Counted from the first letter of the stretch, positions 11,400 to 53,018 are shown. The stretch is 64,000 bases of DNA from a virus (IMGVR_UViG_3300031994_001875:8147-72146), one strand, 5' to 3'. Notes: generated by a model from the sequence alone, not told the origin. Numbers and translations are program-made.

Positions 11400-12557
11400 C
11401 TATACTTCTTCATTTTGTGGTTGTATCATCTTATGAACTGCAATTTTTACACCTTTGATAGATTTCTTACCTAACAAATAGTCAATAGCACACATTATGA
11501 TAGGAACTTCGTTCTTTTCCATAGTGTCTACTGCCATTTGAAACTGGTCTTTTCTATTTGGTTTAGCATCCATAATCTGTTGAGCAACCTGTACATAATC
11601 ATCTGTTCTATTTGTGATTTCTGTACGTATCCATTCTGCGTATTCACGAATTTCAGGCAATTCTTCAGGAATAAACAGAACTTCATCATCTATTGGTTTA
11701 TATGAGTTATGTTTATCAACATGAGCATGGAAGAAGTCCTTCTCAATGTCATAACAAACCCATATATTCCATTTAGTCATACCTTCAAACATTTTAGCCA
11801 ACTGGCACCAATCGTCTGATTTAGCCTTGGTCTTAAAACCATTATCAAAGGTGATAACTAGACCTTCTTGGGTCTTTGGCAATTTCTTTGCCCATTCTAC
11901 CGCATCATTGAACTTTTCAAATTCATACAGTTCTACCATACGAACTTTCAAAGATTTTGCGATTTGTTGAAGTTTTTCCAAAGATACTTCTTCTCCAGTT
12001 AAATTCCACAATACACCCAACAAAACCATACCTTCGTAATCATATTTAATTGGATGAATATCTTCCTTATATACAATTTCAAAGCAATATGTTGCGTTTG
12101 GATAAAGTAAATTTACATCTATGTTTTTATCAAACCATTTCTGTGCCCAAACTGCCTGGTCGGAATCAAATGAGCCACCAGTCTTAACTTGCCATTTATG
12201 AGTAAATGGATTTAAGAACACAATACCCAATGAACCATCCACCTTTTCCATACAACGGAATGGACCTTCCAAATTTGGTTTAAATTCTTTTGGAACTTTC
12301 AAATACAATTCGGACTTAAGACCTTCAGCAGTATAGAATTCCTGGTAGTTGAAGAATTTCTTGAAAGGACGGGCTACAATTTCACCAGTCTTTTCATTGA
12401 ATACAATACCACGGGCATTAAGAGTTACATCATCCCAATCACCAGTATAAATCGTATTCATAGAATACTTGAAACCAACCAACCCATTTTGACGATGGGC
12501 AGTTACTCGGCCTAATTTTTCTGCTTCTAATAATAATTGTAATGATGGTTCAAACAT
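11400..12557 (-). CDS. rnlA: RNA ligase 1 (T4 RnlA-like)
   Basis: 385 aa. Nucleotidyltransferase motif I KVDGSLG (T4 Rnl1 KEDGSL). The N-terminal region ...YTGDWDDVTLNARGIVFNEKTGEIVARPFKKFFNYQE parallels T4 Rnl1 ...[40 protein letters not shown]. Confidence 0.85.
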   Translation of the reverse strand: MFEPSLQLLLEAEKLGRVTAHRQNGLVGFKYSMNTIYTGDWDDVTLNARGIVFNEKTGEIVARPFKKFFNYQEFYTAEGLKSELYLKVPKEFKPNLEGPFRCMEKVDGSLGIVFLNPFTHKWQVKTGGSFDSDQAVWAQKWFDKNIDVNLLYPNATYCFEIVYKEDIHPIKYDYEGMVLLGVLWNLTGEEVSLEKLQQIAKSLKVRMVELYEFEKFNDAVEWAKKLPKTQEGLVITFDNGFKTKAKSDDWCQLAKMFEGMTKWNIWVCYDIEKDFFHAHVDKHNSYKPIDDEVLFIPEELPEIREYAEWIRTEITNRTDDYVQVAQQIMDAKPNRKDQFQMAVDTMEKNEVPIIMCAIDYLLGKKSIKGVKIAVHKMIQPQNEEV

Positions 12558-25656: not shown

Positions 25657-26018
25657 TTAAAATCTCCTTCAAGAAGTTTAACTTGTAATTCGTTTTTGAA
25701 CAATTTAAGATGTTTGTCGCACAAATTTCTTAAATCTTCATCACTCATATTGGAATAATAGTATTGATTCCAAGGAGCATATCTAATAAGTTTCAGTAAT
25801 CTCCATATAACACCATCTTCCCAACTCATAAACGGGTCAAAACAATCAAATAAACGCATTAAATTATCAAATTCAGCAACCGAGTAAAGGTTTCTAATTC
25901 TGTAAAACATTGTACTGAACATTTCACATGCTTCTTTACTGTCTTTTCTCCAATCAAAGCATTTATACACATTTGCTTCAATTTGTGTGAAATATTCAGT
26001 AACATCACCTTCAAACAT
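25653..26018 (-). CDS. hypothetical protein, tandem paralog of 25240..25656
   Basis: See the paralog entry above. Confidence 0.5.
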   Translation of the reverse strand: MFEGDVTEYFTQIEANVYKCFDWRKDSKEACEMFSTMFYRIRNLYSVAEFDNLMRLFDCFDPFMSWEDGVIWRLLKLIRYAPWNQYYYSNMSDEDLRNLCDKHLKLFKNELQVKLLEGDFK

Positions 26019-26992
26019 TAATAACCTTCACAAGATTTGGCTAATAATTCTCTAACATCTTCTTTTCCTGTGAATGAATATCTTTTATCCATAGCACTTG
26101 TAGAAGACCTAGATACTTTCATTTGAACTGCATCCACAAACATTGTAGATACTGTTATATTTCCGTCCTTATCAAACATATCGTAGTCATGACCCTGATA
26201 AATCAATTTGAATTTATCATCTGGCATACCCAATGTTTCTTTTGGATGTAATTGTTCCATACCAAGGCAATCAAAAGATATAAGTTTACATTTCTTTTCA
26301 AGCATTGGTAAATCTTTTCTTAATTGTTCAATGTTTGCTTTGATTTCATCAGAGTGTTTGATTAAATTATCATTACCTCTGCGGATATTCTTATATCCGA
26401 GAATAAGAACCTTTTTTCCAAACAATCTCTTGTAATCTTCGGGCTTTAAAACACCAGCAATCGTGTGGATTACTACATTCGGGCCCAATCTAGCAATTCT
26501 TGTAAAATCTTCACTCTTTGTAGAGTCAGTTAATGATATACCAATACCACCGATATAGTTATTAATCATACAGGCATTCAAAAATTCAAAAGATTTCTTT
26601 AAATGCTTTTGATTAACTGTAATGTTAGGAACAATACCGCGTTTTCTACATTCACAAATAAACCAATTTATCTGTGGGTGAGAAGTAGCATCACCACCAC
26701 CGATAGCAATTTCAACGCCTGGCTTAATAGTGTCAAGCATTGGTAATAGTTTATTCAAATCGGCGTGTTTACCCTTTGTAGTAGAATTTTCGTGGCAATA
26801 AACACAACCGGCATCACAATAGTCAGTAATCTTTAAATCAAATGATTCAGGAAATTCATAAGTAAAATGGTCATCGTTTGGGTCAATGGTTTCTTTTACT
26901 TTTGTGCCATCACTATACAACTTAACAATGTGATTACCATTCCGGTATTCATACCAAGGATTTGGATTAGGTAAAGTCTTTTTCCAGTTCAT
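26018..26992 (-). CDS. radical SAM domain protein
   Basis: CDAGCVYC (CxxxCxxC) at residues ~57-64, followed by a GGGD glycine-rich SAM-binding-like segment; 324 aa. Confidence 0.55.
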   Translation of the reverse strand: MNWKKTLPNPNPWYEYRNGNHIVKLYSDGTKVKETIDPNDDHFTYEFPESFDLKITDYCDAGCVYCHENSTTKGKHADLNKLLPMLDTIKPGVEIAIGGGDATSHPQINWFICECRKRGIVPNITVNQKHLKKSFEFLNACMINNYIGGIGISLTDSTKSEDFTRIARLGPNVVIHTIAGVLKPEDYKRLFGKKVLILGYKNIRRGNDNLIKHSDEIKANIEQLRKDLPMLEKKCKLISFDCLGMEQLHPKETLGMPDDKFKLIYQGHDYDMFDKDGNITVSTMFVDAVQMKVSRSSTSAMDKRYSFTGKEDVRELLAKSCEGY

Positions 26993-28174: not shown

Positions 28175-28426
28175 TTATCGTAATTCTATTGCCCAAGCCC
28201 AACCAGCATGATTATACCTGTACACATGGTCATCAAGTGTTGTAAACATTAAATCGTTTCCACTAGGATTAAAGTCTTTTGCTTTGTAATTTACACAAGT
28301 ATCGGCACTACCACCAATAGCACAGATTTTGATGTTGTAATAACGGTCGCCATTTCGTGTCTTATTTGGGCCGTCACAACAACCGACTAGAACCATAAGA
28401 ATTAGAGTTAATAGTATTTTCTTCAT
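28175..28426 (-). CDS. small lipoprotein
   Basis: MKKILLTLILMVLVGCC lipobox, preceded by the promoter at 28445-28473 and the SD AAAGGAG. Confidence 0.55.
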   Translation of the reverse strand: MKKILLTLILMVLVGCCDGPNKTRNGDRYYNIKICAIGGSADTCVNYKAKDFNPSGNDLMFTTLDDHVYRYNHAGWAWAIELR

Positions 28427-28444
28427 AGTGTCTCCTTTTCTTTT

Positions 28445-28473
28445 AATATAGTAATTTACTGACGATTTGTCAA
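28445..28473 (-). promoter_or_regulatory. sigma70-like promoter
   Basis: Minus TTGACA-AATCGTCAGTAAATTAC-TATATT. Confidence 0.55.
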
Positions 28474-28798
28474 CTATTTAAAATCATCATCCAATTCTTT
28501 TATTTTTTCCTGAACTTTATAATTTTTTACATATTTCATTGACCAGTATATTCTGTTTTTAAGAACATCACCAGCAATCATACAGGTTTGTTTTAGTGGG
28601 TCATCAAACAATGGCAAAAATGCCATAACTGGGGTATTCTTTACCAGTTTATAACTGCTAAATGATTTACCACCTGGGGTTCGTAAAGATATAATCTTAT
28701 ATCCTTCGTACATATAACCATAATCGTAATGACTACGGCCCCAAACATCAGATTCCATTACTGTTAGCCCACATTCTTTACAGGCTTGTTCGTATTCT

Positions 28799-29158
28799 TC
28801 AAAAGTCAACATTATCTCCACAATTATTTTTTATACACATATTTCTTGTATAATCACTATAATTCTTTTTCTTACATTTATCTTCACAAGAATCTTCTAC
28901 TTCAAAATCATCAAATACAAACTCAGTTGGTTCGTCATTTCGGGGTTCAAAATTCAAATGGTTTAAATTCTTACCCCAATTATCTGCTACAACTGTTGCT
29001 TCAGTTGGTATATTCTTTGGTTCAGGTGCTTTTGGTTTATTGCCAGCAATGATTTCAAGAGCATCTGCAATTCGTTTTAACTGAGTTTTACATTCGTAAT
29101 CACAAGCATTAGCAAATACAGAACCGAAGAATACTAACAAAATAATGTATTTAGTCAT
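28799..29158 (-). CDS. secreted Cys-rich small protein (family member)
   Basis: Signal peptide MTKYIILLVFFGSVFANA; ACDYECK...DSCEDKCKK...MCIKNNC. Confidence 0.5.
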   Translation of the reverse strand: MTKYIILLVFFGSVFANACDYECKTQLKRIADALEIIAGNKPKAPEPKNIPTEATVVADNWGKNLNHLNFEPRNDEPTEFVFDDFEVEDSCEDKCKKKNYSDYTRNMCIKNNCGDNVDF

Positions 29159-29549
29159 AACACCCTATTAAATGTTAATGAATGAACACAAATTTTGTAA
29201 ATCAGCATCAGTTTGAATTACAAAGAAATACTGACCATCAATTTCAATGCCATATTTGCGTTTCTTTGCTGGTTGGTTCATAAGAAACCCGAGACCAAAA
29301 CCTGATAACTGGGATTTACCCCAACCTGGCATATTATTAAATTTGGAATTTTGAACAGTTTCAGTATCACTGGATTTCAACGTCATAGTAGTCATATAAT
29401 TACGCCCATTGGAATTACCATCAACTTCAACTGTTAACTGACCATTGGAATAAAAACTTTCACTACGAATATGATTACAAGTTCCAAGTGCTTTTAATTT
29501 GTTTCCATTTTTGTCAACAGAAAATTTTTGAATTGTAGTTTTCATAGTT

Positions 29550-29963
29550 CTAGTCCTTTAAACATTGTTCTTTGATACAGAATTTGATTAAACTTTCAGC
29601 ATTATGTTTTTCTTTACACTGTTTAATACAATCATCCATTGTTTGTATTCCATTACCAATGTAAACTGTATCGTGTTTCACAATATAAACTGTGTCCACT
29701 TTGGTTTCAGTTACTACTGGTTTTTCTTTCTTCTTTGGATGTTTCTTGTTAAAATGGTCATCACATGCTTTAGCATGGTCATAAGACCAGTGAGTTCTAT
29801 CACCAGTACAAACTCTATTGTAGGTTTCCGGGTCATTAACTTCACATTTATCCAAATCACTCATACATTTCAATGAAAAGAGTTTTGGAACTGCTACGGC
29901 TGCTAAAATGCCCATAATAACGATTACTACCATTAGTTCAATTAAAGTAAATCCCTTTTTCAT
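29550..29963 (-). CDS. type IV pilin-like protein (prepilin N-terminal motif) with a Cys-rich C-terminus
   Basis: MKKGFTLIELMVVIVIMGILAAVAVP is the canonical G|FTLIE prepilin cleavage/methylation motif. The C-terminus carries DDCIKQCKE...FCIKEQC. Confidence 0.65.
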   Translation of the reverse strand: MKKGFTLIELMVVIVIMGILAAVAVPKLFSLKCMSDLDKCEVNDPETYNRVCTGDRTHWSYDHAKACDDHFNKKHPKKKEKPVVTETKVDTVYIVKHDTVYIGNGIQTMDDCIKQCKEKHNAESLIKFCIKEQCLKD

Positions 29964-29964
29964 A

Positions 29965-30333
29965 TTAGAACCTCATACAATCATCCATACACTGGTGAGC
30001 TGCTTCCACACTAGGATGCCAGGATTTGTTATATTCTTCAGTACATTTATCAATACATTTCTTCATTAATAAATTGTAAGTTTCTTCGTCAATCTCAATG
30101 TATTCGTCATCTTCGTCACTTTCAACAGTACTGTCACTAGGGAGCCCAGTTACATAGCTGTTAGTGTCAATAGTCGCATTTAAAATCGGGCTCTCCTTAG
30201 CCATTTCCTGGTCAAGTACTTTGATTGTGAGTTTTGCGACCTGTTGTTCTAGTTCAAAAACCCGCCGCTCCAGTTCACTAAATGTGGCAGCATAAGCAAC
30301 ACCACATAACAGAATGAATAATACCAGTTTCTT
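29965..30333 (-). CDS. secreted Cys-rich small protein (family member)
   Basis: Probable start MKKLVLFILLCGVAYA (signal peptide); C-terminus KCIDKCTEE...HQCMDDC. Confidence 0.45.
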   Translation of the reverse strand, partial: KKLVLFILLCGVAYAATFSELERRVFELEQQVAKLTIKVLDQEMAKESPILNATIDTNSYVTGLPSDSTVESDEDDEYIEIDEETYNLLMKKCIDKCTEEYNKSWHPSVEAAHQCMDDCMRF

Positions 30334-30516
30334 CATTTTTTCTTTACTCTCCTTTCTTTCTTTGGATTTAATCTCCAATGTTGTTTTTGTGGTTGGGTTT
30401 TCCCTTCATTCAAATCGGCCTGATTTTGAAATAATTTTTTAATAACATTGTAGTCATATAGTCTGTTATTCATTGTGGAAGGTCTTTGTTGGCCGAGTTT
30501 GAAACCTTCTTCTTTT

Positions 30517-30978
30517 TTAATTGTCGCCACTAAAAGTCCTATTTCCCTTTACGATGAAAACCCAATTTCCATTACAATCTTTAACTGAGATTCCACCATC
30601 TAATTCACTATCAACTAATGAGCCATCACACAAAATCTTATAATTCGTAATTCCTTCAATTTCATAAGCTGCTTTCAAATCAAAGAAATCAATTTGAACC
30701 ATAAATGGTTTTCTCTTATTATCTTCTACAACAGTCATTCCTTTAGAATTAAAACTAAAACCATCGGTCTTAATATAAACTGTATCGTGAACAATTTCTT
30801 TTACGATTTCTTTTTCTTTATTAACATTCTTTTCAAGCTGTTGTGCTTTGTAAATTGCGTTTTGATTTTTAACGATTCTAGCACCCACATCATTCATTCC
30901 ATAATATGAAACTGCAAAACCACAAAATATAAAAATCATTAGTACAATTACTTTCCAATCTTTTAGTGCATCAATCAT
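30517..30978 (-). CDS. membrane-anchored protein carrying an HDTVY motif
   Basis: N-terminal transmembrane segment WKVIVLMIFIFCGFAVSYY, followed by EIVHDTVYIKTDG. Confidence 0.45.
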   Translation of the reverse strand: MIDALKDWKVIVLMIFIFCGFAVSYYGMNDVGARIVKNQNAIYKAQQLEKNVNKEKEIVKEIVHDTVYIKTDGFSFNSKGMTVVEDNKRKPFMVQIDFFDLKAAYEIEGITNYKILCDGSLVDSELDGGISVKDCNGNWVFIVKGNRTFSGDN

Positions 30979-31288
30979 TGTTTATTCTCCTACAGTTTTC
31001 TCTAATACAAAATTCAATTATAGAATTTGAAACATTGTTTGCCTTACATTCTGCCACACATTCATCAAAATCATTGGTGATTTCTTTAACTGGTTCTTCG
31101 TGTTGAATTGGTTCTGGTTTTGGTGTAACAACTGACTCATCAGTAATCACAAGTGGTTTTTCTTTAAATACAGATGGTTCTTTTGGAACTGGCTTAATTG
31201 GTGAATTAACTTGATAGTCAAATGGATCTGCGAAAGCAAACAAAATAAATGCGGTAAGAATTAAGAGTAAACTAAGTTTCATATCCAT
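30971..31288 (-). CDS. secreted Cys-rich small protein (family member)
   Basis: Signal peptide MDMKLSLLLILTAFILFAFA; C-terminus DECVAECKANN...FCIRENC. Confidence 0.5.
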   Translation of the reverse strand: MDMKLSLLLILTAFILFAFADPFDYQVNSPIKPVPKEPSVFKEKPLVITDESVVTPKPEPIQHEEPVKEITNDFDECVAECKANNVSNSIIEFCIRENCRRINND

Positions 31289-31360
31289 AATTCCTTTGTT
31301 TTAAAGAAAAAAGCCCAAACAACATTTCGCAACATTGTTCGGGCTCAAATGTTTTTTTTA

Positions 31361-32635
31361 TTACTTGCTAGAGAGTTTATTAGTCAAATCCATTAGCATG
31401 TTAAGACCAACGGCATCCATAGCATTACCAGCACCACCCTTAGAGTCACCGGACATCATGATTTCAGGAACGAGTGGGTGAGTGGACTTTGCCAATGCTT
31501 CAGCAACACCAACCTTCGTCTTATATTCCCATTCAGCTCGTTCCTGTGGGGTCAAACCAGCGGCAACCTTTGCTCGGTTTGCGGCTGCTTCTGCCTCACC
31601 CTCAGCCTTAATCTTCTTTGCTACTTCAAGAGCCTTGAGAGCTTCTAGACGAGCAACTTCCTTTTCTCTTTCAGCATTAAGAATTGCCACATCACGTTCC
31701 TTTTCGGCCTGGGTTACTTCGGCAATCTTGATTACTTCCTGAGCAGCCTTTGCTTCAGCGATTTTTGCTTTACCCTCAGCTTCAGCCGTAAGAGCCTTCT
31801 GCTTTGCGGTTTCAGCAGCTGTTGCGTTTGCTACACGCTGCATTTCACGTTCCTTCACAATATCCAACTGGTTCTGTGCCTTATCATCAAGCTTCACATT
31901 CTGAATATCAAATTGGAGAACCTTAATTCCATAACGATTGAGTGCGGACTTCTTCGTCATTACACGATTACCATCCTTATCCAGCTTGAGCTTGGTTACA
32001 CGATATTCTTGAATTTCTGCCCTCTTGATAATCTTGCCATTTTCATCTAGTTCATCTTCACCAGCCTTTTCCTGGAGAACCTCAATGGTTGTTGCGTATT
32101 CACCATCAGTAAGCATATCTTCAGCGAGACGGCGGAACTCAGCAATCTTTGTTACCTTCGCCTCTTCAGCCGTAAACAATGGAGCGGTCTTTCGTACTGC
32201 GGAGAGAACAGAATTTCGTACAAGTTCATGCTTAACCTTCTTGTCGGAACGCTGCTCACGATGAATCTTAATCAAATCCTCGCAATCTGTTGGGAGCTGA
32301 TACTTGAGATAACCAGAGATATTTGCGTTAGCATTTCGTGATAGAGTTACGGAAATATCATCTTCGTCACTATCATCTCCTTCCCAACCTTCTCCCTTAA
32401 CCTTTTCGGTGGAAGAGTTGAAATAGAAGTCCTTCGTGCGGTCATAAGAATAAATCTTTGCGAAACCCTTGAAGTAGAAACCAGCGTGGTCAATACAACT
32501 CATTGAACCAGTTGGTGACTGCTTTACGAGAAGCTGCGTTTCATCGTTATAACCAACGATAGACGTTGCGAAGAATGCGGAAGCAATAAGAATGATTGCC
32601 GCGAGAATGAGAGTTACCTTTGCTTTTGTACTCAT
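31361..32635 (-). CDS. SPFH/band-7 (flotillin-like) membrane protein
   Basis: N-terminal transmembrane segment TLILAAIILIASAFFA. An SPFH-like core (YGIKVLQFDIQNV...) is followed by a long A/E/K-rich coiled coil (AEAEGKAKIAEAKAAQE...). The GC content is visibly higher than in neighbouring genes. Confidence 0.6.
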   Translation of the reverse strand: MSTKAKVTLILAAIILIASAFFATSIVGYNDETQLLVKQSPTGSMSCIDHAGFYFKGFAKIYSYDRTKDFYFNSSTEKVKGEGWEGDDSDEDDISVTLSRNANANISGYLKYQLPTDCEDLIKIHREQRSDKKVKHELVRNSVLSAVRKTAPLFTAEEAKVTKIAEFRRLAEDMLTDGEYATTIEVLQEKAGEDELDENGKIIKRAEIQEYRVTKLKLDKDGNRVMTKKSALNRYGIKVLQFDIQNVKLDDKAQNQLDIVKEREMQRVANATAAETAKQKALTAEAEGKAKIAEAKAAQEVIKIAEVTQAEKERDVAILNAEREKEVARLEALKALEVAKKIKAEGEAEAAANRAKVAAGLTPQERAEWEYKTKVGVAEALAKSTHPLVPEIMMSGDSKGGAGNAMDAVGLNMLMDLTNKLSSK

Positions 32636-32666: not shown

Positions 32667-33107
32667 TTATTTTGTTATAAAGTTAGTTAGTTTGTTTACA
32701 AGCATTGTTTTGTCAATGGGTAAATCCATTAAATGATGCAGTTCATCTTTAAAGACCTTCACATAAACATCAAAATTATTGGGTTTGCCATTTTTCTTGA
32801 ATGATACGATTTGGTTCAAATAGAAATTTAAATTTGAGTATTTCGGACTATCAGGACCTTTCATACCATTAGAAAATTTATCCAAAAGAAACCATATTTC
32901 AGGATGTTTCTTTTTGTATGTTCGTGCCAAAATTCTATGTGCTATATAGTGTTCTTTTGGTGTCATTAGAACTCTGTTATCTTCTGTATCTAAACCACCC
33001 ATACTTCTACATAGAATGTGGTGAACTGTAAACCGGGGGTCATTGGTCTTTCGGTCCTCGTTTTTACATTTCTTAACAAAGTTCTTATATAGTTTCACAT
33101 AGTTCAT
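32667..33107 (-). CDS. HNH endonuclease (free-standing)
   Basis: FTVHHILCRSMGG...DNRVLMTPKEHYIAHRIL (H-N-H motif). It has its own promoter at 33113-33142, and its ATG lies ~6 nt after the -10 (leaderless-like). Confidence 0.7.
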   Translation of the reverse strand: MNYVKLYKNFVKKCKNEDRKTNDPRFTVHHILCRSMGGLDTEDNRVLMTPKEHYIAHRILARTYKKKHPEIWFLLDKFSNGMKGPDSPKYSNLNFYLNQIVSFKKNGKPNNFDVYVKVFKDELHHLMDLPIDKTMLVNKLTNFITK

Positions 33108-33112
33108 AGTTC

Positions 33113-33142
33113 AATTATAGATAATTATTTTTGGTTTGTCAA
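33113..33142 (-). promoter_or_regulatory. sigma70-like promoter (TTGACA-18-TATAAT)
   Basis: Minus TTGACA AACCAAAAATAATTATTC TATAAT TGAACT ATG. Confidence 0.55.
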
Positions 33143-34119: not shown

Positions 34120-34410
34120 TTACTTTTCAACTGCCTTAAATACGAAACCACTACCCACAAAATCTGCCTTCAACTTGCGACCATTTACAGAGTAGATAAT
34201 GGAAACATCGTTTGAGTGTTCGGCAGTATTGAAATAGCACGGACCACTGTAAGCAAACAATGTATCACCAGTGAACGCATTGAGAACCACAACATCTCGG
34301 TGAAGTTCGGAGTAGTTTGATTCAATGTTCTTTGCCATCATCGTACAACCATTACAACCAGTCATGGTGAGTGCGATAGCGAATACTGCGAGTAGAATGA
34401 TTTTCTTCAT
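34120..34410 (-). CDS. small lipoprotein
   Basis: MKKIILLAVFAIALTMTGC lipobox. Confidence 0.5.
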   Translation of the reverse strand: MKKIILLAVFAIALTMTGCNGCTMMAKNIESNYSELHRDVVVLNAFTGDTLFAYSGPCYFNTAEHSNDVSIIYSVNGRKLKADFVGSGFVFKAVEK

Positions 34411-35111: not shown

Positions 35112-36010
35112 TGGATTTCTTATAAAACTGTGTAAAATAATGTTTACAAATGGCTATTTTTGTTTTTCTTTGTAAATTTTATTATACAAACCATCATAAA
35201 GGAAGATATGAACCGGTAAAATGGCTATGTAATTGGGGATTAGTCTTAACCAAAAACTATCAATGGAACAACCAAACTGATACCAACCAATGAACCATAA
35301 GAAAATGCCGATTTCTATTAGAAATAGTTTTAGAAATTTCATAGTTTACTCCTTTATTTTTAGTATCTTAACCACTTTCTGTGATTCTTCAATTTCTTTC
35401 TTTGTTTGTTCTTCTTGTCTTTCTTTTTCCAACTGTTCAGCAGTAGCCTTTCTCTTTTCTTTCAAATAGATTTTGTACTGAAGAACAGCATCATCTTGGT
35501 CAGTTCCAGTATAGATTGTTACCCAATCATATTGATTTCGGGTAGTTCCATCATCGTAATATGAAGAATGAACTACTGACCATTGCTGGACAACCCAATC
35601 ACCATTTCCGAGCTGTGCTACACGAAATGGATTTTCTGCTAATTTGTTTTCACTATGAATAGTAGTTGCTAAAACAACTGCTATACCGACTAAAAACAAT
35701 GGTAATAAAAAGTAAAACATTTATTCTCCTTATTTAAAATCTTCGGATGCTTTTTGGAATTTGATAATTTCTTTATACTGCTTATATGTTTTGATTAAAT
35801 TCTTCAGGTATTTACGAGCATCATCCAACTGGTCAAACTCAACTGGTTCATACGAATGGTAAATACTTGCATCCAAATGAGTATTTCTTTTGTTGGCAGG
35901 TTTGAAATTTAATTCTAATGGAAAGATTAGAATTTTATTATCACAGTATTTAACTGAAATTTTCAAATCTTTATCCAGTTTATAAAATGCGTTTTCTGTT
36001 TGTTTACTCA

Positions 36011-50654: not shown

Positions 50655-53018
50655 GAATAGCCCTGATAATGTTTGCTATTCCCATTGACCCGAAGATTAT
50701 GAACAAAAGAGTCCAACCTGGGTTGTTTGTAATAAAGTTCATTACAAGTTCCATATTAGTTTTCTCCATATTTTTGTTTTAGTTTTTCGTATAGATTTCG
50801 TTCATCAATTTCTTTCTGTATTTTGGCTTGTTCTTCGGCTTCTTTCTGTTTGCGTTCCATTTCTTCTTTGTCTTTACGCATTTGTTCTTCCCTGCGTTTT
50901 TCTTCGTCAATTAGGAACTGCTCAAAATCTTTCTTTGCCTTGTCTTTATTACCTTCAAAATAATCGTCAAGAATGGTATTGGGTACATTGTATGTGATGT
51001 AATCTTCATCACCATAAATCCAATAACTCAAACGAAGCTCACTCGTTTCACCTGGAGCATTGTAAACAAGTCTATCAAAATAGAACTGTCTAGTTGTTTT
51101 AACACCCTTAAACAGAAATGTCACCATATTATACAGTTCATCTTCCATTTCATCTACACATTTTAGTGATTCACGATATTTTAAAAGTTTTTCATTCATT
51201 CGTAATACCTGTTGTAAAGTTTTTCGTTTAGTACAATGTCTAGTTCTTTTTGAATGTTTGGTGAGTTCCCGTGTAATGGTGAACCATAACCAACTGTTCC
51301 ACCCATCGGGCTCCAAAACACAATATCGTATTTTGAAGTCAAACTCATAACATCAGCTTTTGGCATTTCATATTCAGCACTATCTACCAAACACAAATCA
51401 AGAAAATGTTTGTTCTCGCCAACACCTGAAAGACCTTCAACAAATACTGTCTTAAAAATTGGATTAGCAAACCAAAACTTCAATACTGGAACATGCTGGT
51501 CAATAGCAAATCCATTTGCCTTACGCCAGTTTTGGATTAACGCACGAAGTTCCGCACCAATCATTTCAGGAATTAAAGATTCAATGCTCTTATGGAGAAC
51601 ATCTTTATTCTTATACAAAAGAGTTGTTTTTGTAAAAGGTTTACCCTTAATTTCTTTTTCAACAGTTAATTCAATTTTCTGCGTCATTTTCTTCCTTCTT
51701 TTCGGGTTCTTTTTGAACTACTCTAATCTGTAATGGATAATCTTCTTTAATATATTTCACAGTGGTTGTAATAAACAGATACAGTGAAATCATAAAAGCT
51801 GCACCAAACAAAATAGCATAATCAGGGTTGCCATCTTGATAAAAGCCAATAGAGTGAACAATAGTCCAGGCACAAACTAATGACCAAAGTACAATTCCTA
51901 ATCTCATAGTTTACCTGTATTGGAAAGTGTAGTTGCCTACATCATAAGAGGCATTATGTCTATTCACAGTTCTTTCTTTGAAACCCATTGAGAAAAGTTT
52001 TTCTTTTGTGAGCTGTGAGAACAACATAATGTCACGGTTAGTTGGAGTTTCAATGGTGATTAGTTCGTTCTTTGTATCATAAGTAATCTTACTGCCATCA
52101 TTGAACAAACATTCATTTAAATTCCAGGACTTGATATTATCTAGAATGCCTTCTAGCATCTTAAATCGCCATAACATAAATTGGTCTGTTGTCATAATTC
52201 CTTCTATTTATATGGGAAAATAACCCACATTTCTGTGGGTCATTTGTTTAACATTACTGCGGGTCTGGAACATACAGGATAGTCGGATTATCCTTATGGA
52301 TGTCCATTTGCTTCAGGTCAAGATTCTTTTCCTTCGTGAACTTTTCCCAACGAACACCAAACATTTGTTTGTTAAATGGACTAACCACAAAATGCTTACC
52401 GCTCTTGGTAGGAACAACGAAAAATTCGTTCTTAACCCTGTATCTTGCTTCTTCTTTGCTAATGCCTAAATCCATATAAGCCTGGATTTTCTTGTCATAC
52501 GGCTGGCAATCAAGAATCATTTCCATAACATCGTTTTCGTATGGGAGATATTCCTTGTCCATATCCACAATCCAGGTCTTGTCTTTACCAGCCTGGCAAA
52601 CAGTGCCACATGCGGAGGTAACAAGATGGAACGGTGACGAGAAGGATTCACCACTAGCACATTGTTCAGCAATATGTTTCATCATTTCCAGTGCGATATT
52701 CTTGTAATTTCTCTTATTCAGTCGGATATACGCACGAACATTGAACATATCGCAGAGCATCTTAATATCGTCTTTGACCTTTTCAAGATGGTCAATGTCT
52801 TTAATGAGATAATCCTTGATAGAACGAGAGTGCATGTTCCCGTGATACTTGGGGTCTTTTACACCATTCTTCTGTGGGTCATCCGCCTGGCGACGGAGCA
52901 ACTGAACATAGTAGCAATCGCCTTCTTTCCAATCCAGCTGCTGCTTTGCCATATATTCTTTAATTAGTTCAAAATTATCAACCATTGTTTACCTCTTTTG
53001 TTGTTTGTTTCTAAAGAA

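Follow-up and report, generated by a model that had tools for sequence, protein, structure and literature searches.

Why should a bacteriophage encode a protein that starts like a type IV pilin and ends in a cysteine-rich module common to its secreted neighbours? The question is raised by an array of minus-strand genes, here termed g1 to g9, in a stretch of 64,000 nucleotides from the viral contig IMGVR_UViG_3300031994_001875, which was analysed as a whole and is referred to as the window. A phage setting, as assumed in the preliminary description of this DNA, is borne out by genes for PolB, RNA ligase, GroEL and NAD synthetase and by relatives whose contigs reach 417 kb. A megablast comparison of 27-33 kb of the window with deposited phages gave no match. 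We regard it as next to impossible that the array consists of chance ORFs or of a bacterial fragment wrongly joined into a phage contig. Identical as well as diverged copies with conserved synteny exist in many independent assemblies, which refutes this reading, and the genes of the array are closely spaced on a single strand, with a composition like that of the remaining window; nothing was found that supports such an artefact.

The genes for exported or membrane proteins between positions 28175 and 32635 (minus strand) form a non-random cluster. The pattern C-x3-C-x(8-20)-C-x(3-4)-C occurs in 4 of the 129 minus-strand ORFs of at least 60 aa, all four being adjacent and within 28.8-31.3 kb, and of 16 ORFs having an N-terminal hydrophobic segment, 7 fall into 28175-32635. 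Both counts argue against clustering by chance. A predicted envelope destination of the encoded proteins, as already proposed, is supported by their sequences, while several details had to be corrected. The five ORFs described initially were found again on the minus strand, but g6 starts with an ATG at 30336 and not at 30333. A lipobox in g1 and A-x-A sites in g3, g6 and g8 were confirmed (signal peptides of n/h/c-type, read manually), but two lineage-specific ORFs inside the same span, g2 (28474..28812, 112 aa) and g4 (29168..29545, 125 aa, packed inside the array), have no export signal. The initial tally of two small lipoproteins or secreted proteins, four Cys-rich paralogs and one pilin-like protein is thus replaced by one lipoprotein, three Sec-type Cys-module proteins and one pilin-like protein. 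Two members of the conserved module had been overlooked, namely g7, which has a TM segment, and the SPFH gene g9. A further 65-aa basic ORF with a GTG start (30333..30530, minus strand) is called as a gene in relatives; it has no export signal and its status is uncertain. The arrangement is syntenic: of 9 related loci, 7 have the SPFH gene next to the pilin-like one, and g7, g8 and g1 accompany the latter in several loci. NCBIfam and PDB searches with g1, g2, g3, g4, g6, g7 and g8 returned nothing.

The central gene of the array is g5 (29550..29963, minus strand). It codes for a 137-aa protein with a leader MKKG, an alpha1N helix, a helical head with four Cys, a linker and a C-terminal Cys hairpin. 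Residues 1-30 (29874..29963) represent a class III (prepilin) signal plus alpha1N and are 90% identical to Fibrobacter pilins. This prepilin N-terminus, recognized already in the preliminary description, is genuine, with scores above the curated cut-offs of Pfam N_methyl (PF07963, E=5e-9, 35.8 bits versus 21.2) and of TIGR02532 (37.7 bits versus 16.3), and it shows the Gly-ended leader, F/M+1, E+5 and the hydrophobic stretch of these domains. With type IV pilins and pseudopilins of type II secretion systems (T2SS), g5 has in common the short basic leader ending in Gly, F+1, E+5, G14, P22 and a hydrophobic alpha1N of ~22 residues, and only this leader/alpha1N segment matches solved pilins (PilA, MshA, GspG, geopilin). 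The designation as a type-IV-pilin-like protein therefore holds up to residue ~30, but the remainder is neither pilin nor pseudopilin. Full-length equivalog models all score below their cut-offs (GspG 38.6/88.85, GspH 34.2/80, PilA 34.5/400, ComGC 28/75 bits). The mature part is all-helical in the predicted structure, contains 8-10 Cys and lacks the alpha-beta head of pilins, in which an antiparallel beta-sheet packs on alpha1C; no structural neighbours of the predicted mature part were found. The best PDB sequence match, Geobacter PilA-N (geopilin domain 1; E=4e-10), is confined to residues 2-30. That protein is likewise reduced to essentially the alpha1 helix, whereas g5 goes on with a Cys-stapled helical head, linker and hairpin, and has neither a PilA-C partner nor a pilus operon.

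In addition, g5 differs from type IV pilins and pseudopilins in being encoded by a phage without filament assembly genes nearby. Domains Peptidase_A24, T2SSE and T2SSF (representing PilD, PilB and PilC) are absent from the Pfam lists for up to ~20 kb around the g5-type gene in loci L001-L009. Among deposited phages, tblastn with g5 detected N-terminal matches only, p038 of Aeromonas phage PX29 being a 31-aa fragment. Phage-encoded pseudopilins had been called rare, which applies only in relative terms, as six PHROG families carry a prepilin motif.

Residues 88-102 of g5 (29658..29702) form a tandem DTVYI strand-like motif (KVDTVYIVKHDTVYI), which is common to g7 and lies in a low-confidence part of the model. 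As the assembly of type IV filaments is licensed by short beta-strands (PMC13533445), these strands may have a role in this process. They are followed by the C-x3-C-x12-C-x4-C module (residues 106-137, 29553..29648). Structure prediction for this module, which had been suggested as a check, yielded a helix-loop-helix with helices 109-119 and 123-134 at a pLDDT of ~80, and the four-Cys hairpin is probably disulfide-stapled.

Secreted proteins with this type of C-terminus are encoded on both sides of g5. In g8 (30971..31288, minus strand), a Sec signal peptide is followed by a Pro-rich linker and the Cys hairpin (CVAECKANNVSNSIIEFCIRENC). In g3 (28799..29158, minus strand), the signal peptide precedes a mature N-terminal C-x3-C 'LKRIADALE' helix, a linker and the hairpin. 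In g6 (29965..30336, minus strand), it precedes a coiled-coil-like helix and an acidic linker. By manual reading, cleavage sites are ANA/C in g3, AYA/A in g6 and AFA/D in g8. Cys spacing is C-x3-C-x12-C-x4-C in g3, g5 and g8, and C-x3-C-x16-C-x3-C in g6. Alignment of the g8 and g5 families by hhalign resulted in a probability of 98.4% (E=8.8e-15), and g3 was related to g8 with 96% and to g5 with 86% probability. Judged from these profile alignments, g8, g5 and g3 carry homologous modules, so that the proposed fusion of a prepilin N-terminus to the module of secreted paralogs is confirmed. For g6, the hhalign probability is 5.7% and homology to the hairpin is not demonstrable; we consider it a lineage-specific analogue. 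The shared C-terminal Cys pattern that had been described thus holds for g3, g5 and g8, but g6 does not match the regular expression given for it and the motif is absent from g1. A Tim10 zinc finger was dropped as identity of g6, the Pfam match to zf-Tim10_DDP being weak and below threshold (E=0.067). In PDB sequence searches, the g8 family and g6 gave nothing beyond noise at E<=5. The g8 protein has 71 close homologs. The hairpin module is limited to 30 representative clusters among 1.84 billion proteins. The hairpin of ~30 residues is an undescribed module without a Pfam model, restricted to phages in the contexts examined, that has been shuffled among export signals. It is reminiscent of alpha-hairpinins and of the twin-CX3C small Tim proteins, where four Cys (CX3C...CX3C) are placed on two antiparallel helices (PMC7191063). 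This is a structural analogy only: in g3, g5 and g8 the second pair is CX4C, and those eukaryotic families are unrelated in sequence and function. The g3 gene is duplicated in some strains.

The g5 family is large, with 1,432 matches (about 1,400 members). All distant members for which the context was examined, two database members and IMG/VR viral loci, reside in phage-like contigs. These carry genes for PolB, RNA ligase and NAD salvage, some are 260-417 kb in size, most are from rumen samples, and the SPFH gene is usually adjacent. No full-length member was found among the best 80 matches from species-representative bacterial genomes, in a scan that was biased toward N-terminal patterns. As established for pilins, residues E5, G14 and P22 play a part in filament assembly and not in simple membrane anchoring. 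In the g5 family, G-1, F+1 and E+5 are each conserved in at least 90% of a 114-sequence alignment, and G14 and P22 in 96% and 97% of 117 members, respectively, while the sequences are about 40% identical outside the pilin-specific residues. Among the bacterial matches listed for residues 2-31, 9 of the best 10 are from rumen Fibrobacter genomes, with 90% identity. The matching Fibrobacter succinogenes gene codes for an ordinary 164-aa pilin with a head unrelated to g5. Synonymous sites have diverged between the phage and host copies of alpha1N although the proteins are 90% identical, so that this identity has been kept by selection and is not due to recent transfer. P0260 suggests that some strains may lack g5.

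The other members of the module are also directed to the envelope. SPFH/Band-7 protein g9 (31361..32635, minus strand, 424 aa) is membrane-anchored and is the conserved neighbour of the pilin-like gene. Its match to phrog_11908 has an E value of 2e-46, and it shares 33% identity with the SPFH protein of crAss001. Its score against Pfam Band_7 (PF01145) is 22.6 bits, just below the gathering score of 23.6, and Band_7 is recorded for the orthologs of g9 in L005 and L008. The conserved gene g7 (30517..30978, minus strand) codes for an N-terminal TM anchor, a helix, an HDTVYI motif in common with g5 and a C-terminal domain with two Cys. Its AF2 model (13 sequences) is unusable with a pLDDT of 40; the TM segment and helix extend to about residue 50. 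Small lipoprotein g1 (28175..28426, minus strand, 83 aa) has a canonical lipobox (LVGC) and no hairpin; in L010, L015 and L016, the pilin-like gene is closely followed downstream by a g1 homolog.

The region is served by early promoters of the sigma70 type. A perfect consensus (TTGACA-17-TATAAT, 33114..33142, minus strand) is located 7 nt upstream of an HNH-like ORF and reads into the SPFH gene. Another promoter with an 11/12 match (TTGACA-17-TATATT, 28445..28473, minus strand) is found 19 nt upstream of g1. Between the SPFH gene and g8, a terminator-like hairpin of the intrinsic type (31311..31346, minus strand) has a 16-bp stem followed by a T run. The coding strand of the window carries 12 promoters of the form TTGACA-N17-TATATT, while the T4 late motif TATAAATA occurs only once in 64 kb. 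From these signals, the region is predicted to be expressed early.

The host of the phage is probably Fibrobacter, an assignment based on a 30-residue helix which is 75-86% identical in many phyla and on a pattern-limited genome scan. The GC content counts against it, with 33% in the phage and 43-55% in the Fibrobacter loci. Two candidate contigs were discarded: L027, a Fibrobacter MAG contig with a match to the RNA ligase of the window, is not a phage but part of an ordinary chromosome, and in L017 a host pilin gene lies beside a prophage-like region. A published account of NAD-encoding gut jumbo phages gives hosts at phylum level only, and these genes are not mentioned there. F. succinogenes adheres to cellulose via pilins and fibro-slime proteins, and its T2SS genes are up-regulated on cellulose (PMC4668043).

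We tentatively prefer the interpretation that g5 is a host-mimicking 'headless' pilin which enters the type IV filament pathway of the host. In this reading, the block is the conserved, early-expressed envelope module of a rumen jumbo phage that belongs to the T4 superfamily and has roughly 400 kb of DNA. After infection, the block would be transcribed by the host RNA polymerase and g5 would be cut after Gly-1 by the host prepilin peptidase (PilD). Mature g5 would reside in the inner membrane, from where its host-identical alpha1N (E5, G14, P22) may lead it into the type IV pilus and/or the T2SS pseudopilus, and it would cap, poison or decorate the filament. In this subunit, the beta-sheet head of pilins would have been swapped for a small disulfide-stapled helical head, the strand-like DTVYV linker and the C-terminal disulfide-stapled helix-loop-helix. 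The soluble hairpin paralogs, TM protein g7, lipoprotein g1 and the SPFH scaffold would target, or cooperate with, that same partner in the periplasm. For the phage, this would probably pay off by blocking pilus-dependent superinfection or by changing host adhesion to cellulose. Interference with the host type IV filament system, as initially proposed, is plausible because of the near-invariance of the pilin residues, the 90% helix identity to Fibrobacter, which is seen at the protein level only, and the early sigma70-type promoters; the absence of a pilin fold beyond residue ~30 speaks against it. Superinfection exclusion as the role of the cluster is purely conjectural. We are more doubtful about a specific version, a 'Trojan pilin' of rumen jumbo phages infecting Fibrobacter. 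Such a subunit mimic would keep the exact assembly helix of the host and be accepted by its prepilin peptidase and pilus/T2SS platform, and the non-pilin head, DTVYV decoys and disulfide hairpin would jam or re-purpose the filament together with the secreted hairpin paralogs.

In the main rival to filament entry, the prepilin segment serves only to place the effector on the periplasmic face and can stand in for other such devices (Sec signal peptides, plain TM segments and lipobox-like Cys clusters). The effector would be the DTVYV strand plus disulfide hairpin, which would, like the small early periplasmic proteins Spackle and Imm of T4, neutralise a component of an incoming phage or a host periplasmic enzyme, without involvement of pili. 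The hairpin module is indeed found behind four kinds of N-terminus. In P0253, a plain TM anchor replaces the prepilin segment in front of the HDTVYV-plus-hairpin unit, and this unit is also found behind Sec signal peptides. The anchor thus is exchangeable, which weakens the pilus-specific reading, as does the lack of pilus genes in the vicinity. Also, g8, g3 and g6 plausibly resemble Spackle and Imm, which are early, small, exported, helical proteins of T4-type phages (PMC7677548), in being small, secreted, helical and probably Cys-bonded products of an early region of a T4-superfamily phage. However, they differ in Cys pattern, and their sequences resemble neither Spackle nor any solved structure. 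Moreover, E5, G14 and P22 are near-invariant and the alpha1N identity is maintained at the protein level only, which goes far beyond what a membrane anchor needs, and the pilin-type form dominates the family (about 1,400 matches as compared to 71 for g8). We consider this rival rather unlikely, though it has to be taken seriously.

It is improbable that the block is a lysis module in which TM-anchored periplasmic g7 and lipoprotein g1 form a two-component spanin while the SPFH, pilin-like and hairpin proteins regulate or assist late envelope disruption. The canonical lipobox of g1 would fit, g7-like and g1-like genes abut in L010, and just upstream of its SPFH gene, L008 encodes a 121-aa TM protein as well as a lytic transglycosylase (SLT) bearing a TM segment at the N-terminus. 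However, homologs of these two are absent from the window, for which reason a lysis cassette was discarded. In the window, a distance of 2 kb separates g7 from g1, an early promoter of the sigma70 type is dedicated to g1, T4-type late promoters are missing from the region, and spanin, holin and endolysin families have no matches; neither a lysis-cassette context nor late expression is indicated, and pilin mimicry is left unexplained. We also give little credence to a pure decoration of filaments, where g5 becomes a building block of host pili and presents the hairpin at the cell exterior, so that adhesion is altered (e.g. cellulose release or aggregation) without the pili being blocked. In its favour, g5 has kept the assembly residues E5, G14 and P22, the flexible linker and small head seen in the model would make the hairpin project, and the best PDB match is to short head-less pilins such as Geobacter PilA-N. 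However, packing of the all-alpha head in a filament has no support, and it is not obvious what the secreted paralogs would do. Decoration is a variant of the filament-entry interpretation, from which it is computationally inseparable.

If filament entry by g5 applies, its proposed anti-pilus function is shared by phage proteins Tip (D3112), Aqs1 (DMS3) and PfsE (Pf4), but these proteins have no resemblance to pilins and attach to PilB or PilC. A phage mimic of a pilin subunit is not described in the literature that we searched. It would represent a new principle, as a counterfeit subunit would poison or redecorate the filament while known anti-pilus proteins of phages bind the ATPase or the platform, and subunit mimicry would define a new class of host-takeover or superinfection-exclusion effectors. 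It would also connect Fibrobacter, by concrete sequence evidence, with an uncultured family of rumen phages of roughly 400 kb. As Fibrobacter is a principal fibre degrader that attaches to cellulose via pilins, phage infection could alter fibre colonisation. The hairpin of ~30 residues is a tractable target for structure determination and for the discovery of binding partners. Phage SPFH/Band-7 proteins resembling g9 occur elsewhere (phrog_11908, crAss001), but only in this clade are they closely linked to a pilin mimic.

The gene at 29550-29963 (minus strand; g5) codes for a pilin-like protein, and the prepilin N-terminus assigned to it in the preliminary description was confirmed, as it clears the cut-offs of Pfam N_methyl and TIGR02532. 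The pilin and pseudopilin models failed, however, with g5 far under the cut-offs of GspG, GspH, PilA and ComGC. A database search gave 1,432 relatives, many of them full length with 30-50% identity, and alignments of 23 and 114 members reveal a fixed layout. The MKKG leader and alpha1N helix are followed by four invariant cysteines, or six in the majority of members, then by a basic/Pro-rich linker, a tandem, strand-like 'DTVyVxKHDTV' motif and a C-x3-C-x12-C-x4-C module. The pilin residues G-1, F+1 and E+5 are each at least 90% conserved (114-member alignment), and G14 (96%) and P22 (97%) are near-invariant among 117 members, while identity outside the pilin-type residues is just ca. 40%. The AlphaFold2 model, computed from the 114-sequence alignment with moderate confidence (pLDDT 71.8), has a long helix (residues 7-35), then three short ones (37-74) and a disordered linker (81-106) and, for the Cys module whose structure prediction had been called for, a helix-loop-helix (109-119 and 123-134); no beta-strand occurs anywhere in it.

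The bacterial counterpart of the helix was sought in a pattern-limited scan with one genome per bacterial species, and no full-length member of the g5 family was found among the 80 best matches listed. Nine of the ten best matches listed are from rumen Fibrobacter genomes, each with ca. 90% identity over residues 2-31; other phyla follow among the matches listed with 75-86% over these residues. The Fibrobacter succinogenes gene codes for a conventional pilin of 164 aa that agrees with the phage consensus over its first 29 mature residues and has an unrelated head. As synonymous positions differ throughout between the phage and Fibrobacter helix DNA, the identity at the protein level has been kept by selection and is not a leftover of recent transfer.

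The proposed cluster of envelope genes around g5 is real, with 7 of the 16 ORFs that carry an N-terminal hydrophobic segment concentrated in a 4.5-kb part of the 64-kb window, but its membership had to be corrected: g7 and the SPFH gene, which both belong to the conserved module, had been overlooked. All elements are on the minus strand. The SPFH/Band-7 gene (g9, 31361-32635) is followed by a terminator with a 16-bp stem (31346-31311), g8 (signal peptide and Cys hairpin, 30971-31288), the TM-anchored g7 (30517-30978), a putative ORF for a basic protein of 65 aa (30333-30530), g6 (signal peptide and Cys motif, 29965-30336), g5, g4 (29168-29545), g3 (signal peptide and Cys hairpin, 28799-29158), g2 (28474-28812), a promoter matching the sigma70 consensus at 11/12 positions (28473-28445) and g1 (28175-28426), a lipoprotein, as proposed from its lipobox (LVGC). 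Genes g2 and g4 lack an export signal. From g8 to g2 the genes overlap or are at most 10 nt apart, except for the stretch with the 65-aa ORF. Between a histidine phosphatase gene and the SPFH gene there is an HNH-like ORF (32667-33107; weak Pfam HNH and IscB-HNH matches), preceded by a perfect sigma70 consensus promoter (33142-33114). It lies upstream of SPFH in the related locus L012 and is missing from that position in both L008 and L010, so that it may be a mobile insertion. A second small lipoprotein (34120-34410, minus strand, MKKIILLAVFAIALTMTGC..., Pfam Phage_VG64, E=7.6e-10) and further small TM proteins (35154-35720) represent additional envelope proteins just upstream of the module.

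Among the 129 ORFs on the minus strand that reach 60 aa, just four, all of them neighbours, contain the Cys pattern C-x3-C-x(8-20)-C-x(3-4)-C. Profile-profile comparison shows the C-terminal modules of the g8 and g5 families to be homologous (98.4% probability, E=8.8e-15), with 96% for g3 against g8 and 86% for g3 against g5. Homology of the g6 module, which differs in spacing (x16, then CX3C), could not be demonstrated by this comparison, and g1 lacks the motif. A hairpin-only profile retrieved just 30 clusters among 1.84 billion representative proteins, all of them short proteins with the hairpin at the extreme C-terminus. In these proteins the unit of DTVYV motif and hairpin is shuffled, its partner at the N-terminal side being of the prepilin type, a plain TM anchor (P0253), a Sec signal peptide followed by a Cys cluster or a g3-type helix; within the window, the DTVYV repeats are common to g5 and g7 only. 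In three otherwise near-identical strains, an extra g3 paralog of 114 aa (MTKYIILLSAVMAFACGSEC...) sits between the g4 and g3 equivalents (L002 10806-11150, L003 7854-8198, L006 2627-2971); judging from these loci, hairpin genes vary in copy number within one phage population. Protein P0260 (127 aa) joins the N-terminus of g6 (29965-30336) to the C-terminus of g3 (28799-29158). Either it arose by natural recombination, in which case g5 and g4 would be deleted, or the assembly is chimeric. Orthologs of g8 in other phages, at L008 9666-9992, L012 5406-5753, L014 5239-5586 and L015 4744-5085 carry a dense Cys cluster directly after the signal peptide (AMGCDELCCKC, FAPCGCK, GNDCWCTCC, AGPCCFCGTC; some lipobox-like), which is absent from g8 of the window.

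The two distant database members examined for context both reside in phage-like contigs, one (L007) of 417 kb with NAPRTase, NMNAT-Nudix and NAD synthase genes, the other (L008) with RNA ligase, SLT, SPFH and PolB. Full-length members also occur in seven IMG/VR viral contigs. In 7 of 9 loci, an SPFH gene lies upstream of the pilin-like gene, at a distance of ca. 2 kb or less. BLAST detects g8-type proteins in five to six loci, some matches being to the module of the pilin-like gene itself; g7 occurs in three, and the g1 lipoprotein lies just downstream of the pilin-like gene in three. Genes g2, g4 and g6 are lineage-specific, and in L010 the module comprises no more than a TM protein, SPFH, the putative pilin mimic, g7 and g1.

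The window has 33% GC, all its genes on the minus strand and no tRNAs, and no near match was found among deposited phages. Its family B DNA polymerase shares ca. 32% identity with cyanomyovirus gp43. As many assemblies from sheep and cattle rumen contain identical or near-identical copies of the region's proteins, with contigs as long as 396 kb, the source is an uncultured jumbo phage from the rumen with a genome of ca. 400 kb and with the T4 superfamily as distant kin. Genes for GroEL (55862-57478), NAD synthetase (63020-63784), a radical-SAM protein (26018-26992) and a T4-type RNA ligase (11400-12557), together with NAPRTase and NMNAT-Nudix in related contigs (L007), place the clade among the NAD-salvage gut jumbo phages (PMC11662467).

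Of the 13 strong sigma70-type promoters in the window (TTGACA-N16-18-TATATT or TATAAT, 11/12 or better), twelve, nearly identical to one another, lie on the coding strand (first hexamers at 497, 15811, 17118, 23793, 25217, 28473, 33142, 35111, 40967, 44308, 49810 and 53047) and one is on the other. Most of the twelve are placed directly in front of an ORF, several at most 35 nt from its start; one precedes g1 and one the HNH-SPFH pair. They look like a phage early-promoter family for a host sigma70-type polymerase. The T4 late motif TATAAATA is strongly under-represented, with one copy (52205-52212) against 8.8 +/- 2.6 expected. We consider the region to be early and transcribed by the host polymerase, a timing to be expected of genes for takeover or exclusion and not of those for the virion or for lysis. 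Fibrobacter pilin genes (L018-L025) are preceded, ca. 60-100 nt upstream of their start (e.g. L025 ca. 7890-7940), by a shared element TTTGACAAAA...TTGCTT-N17-TATATT, and its -10 hexamer is identical to that of the phage TTGACA-N17-TATATT promoters, which is weakly consistent with a Fibrobacter host. Overall, we regard Fibrobacter as the probable host. For F. succinogenes, cellulose adhesion by pilins and fibro-slime proteins has been reported, with T2SS genes up on cellulose (PMC4668043).

The best-supported reading, still a tentative one and in line with the interference with pili or T2SS considered before, is that g5 is a host-mimicking, head-less pilin. The host prepilin peptidase (PilD) would process it, a cleavage that we infer, and its helix with the assembly-specific residues would allow entry into the type IV pilus or T2SS pathway, where the filament might be capped, poisoned or decorated. 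The hairpin, presumably disulfide-bonded, may be a common interaction module for a putative binding partner, which g8 and g3 would deliver in soluble form as well, g6 being an analogue. The membrane partners would be g7, g1 and SPFH. One may speculate that the DTVYV repeats of g5 and g7 act by beta-strand addition, a mechanism that recent work has found to license the assembly of type IV filaments (PMC13533445). The known phage anti-pilus proteins Tip, Aqs1 and PfsE bind to PilB or PilC and do not mimic a subunit (PMC8764522, PMC12378983). The g5 module is thus a clearly delimited and testable candidate for subunit mimicry that would interfere with a filament system of the host, a bacterium of ecological importance.

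The main rival, which we consider rather unlikely, takes the prepilin segment as no more than an anchor, one of several that can replace each other, for an effector that acts in the periplasm like Spackle (PMC7677548). That the module represents spanins or other lysis genes is improbable, a reading weakened by the early promoters and by the lack of an endolysin or holin gene here.

Phage pseudopilins had been called rare, but prepilin-motif ORFs are already on record in six PHROG families, one annotated 'pilin'. What appears to be undescribed in the libraries and literature searched is a large phage-restricted family combining a host-identical helix with a non-pilin body, its linkage to SPFH and the shuffled, putatively disulfide-bonded hairpin. 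In the cultured, T4-like Aeromonas phage PX29, a 31-aa ORF between nrdB and nrdD (PX29p038, L098 2492-2587) consists of a pilin N-terminus only and may be the remnant of a similar pilin-like gene.
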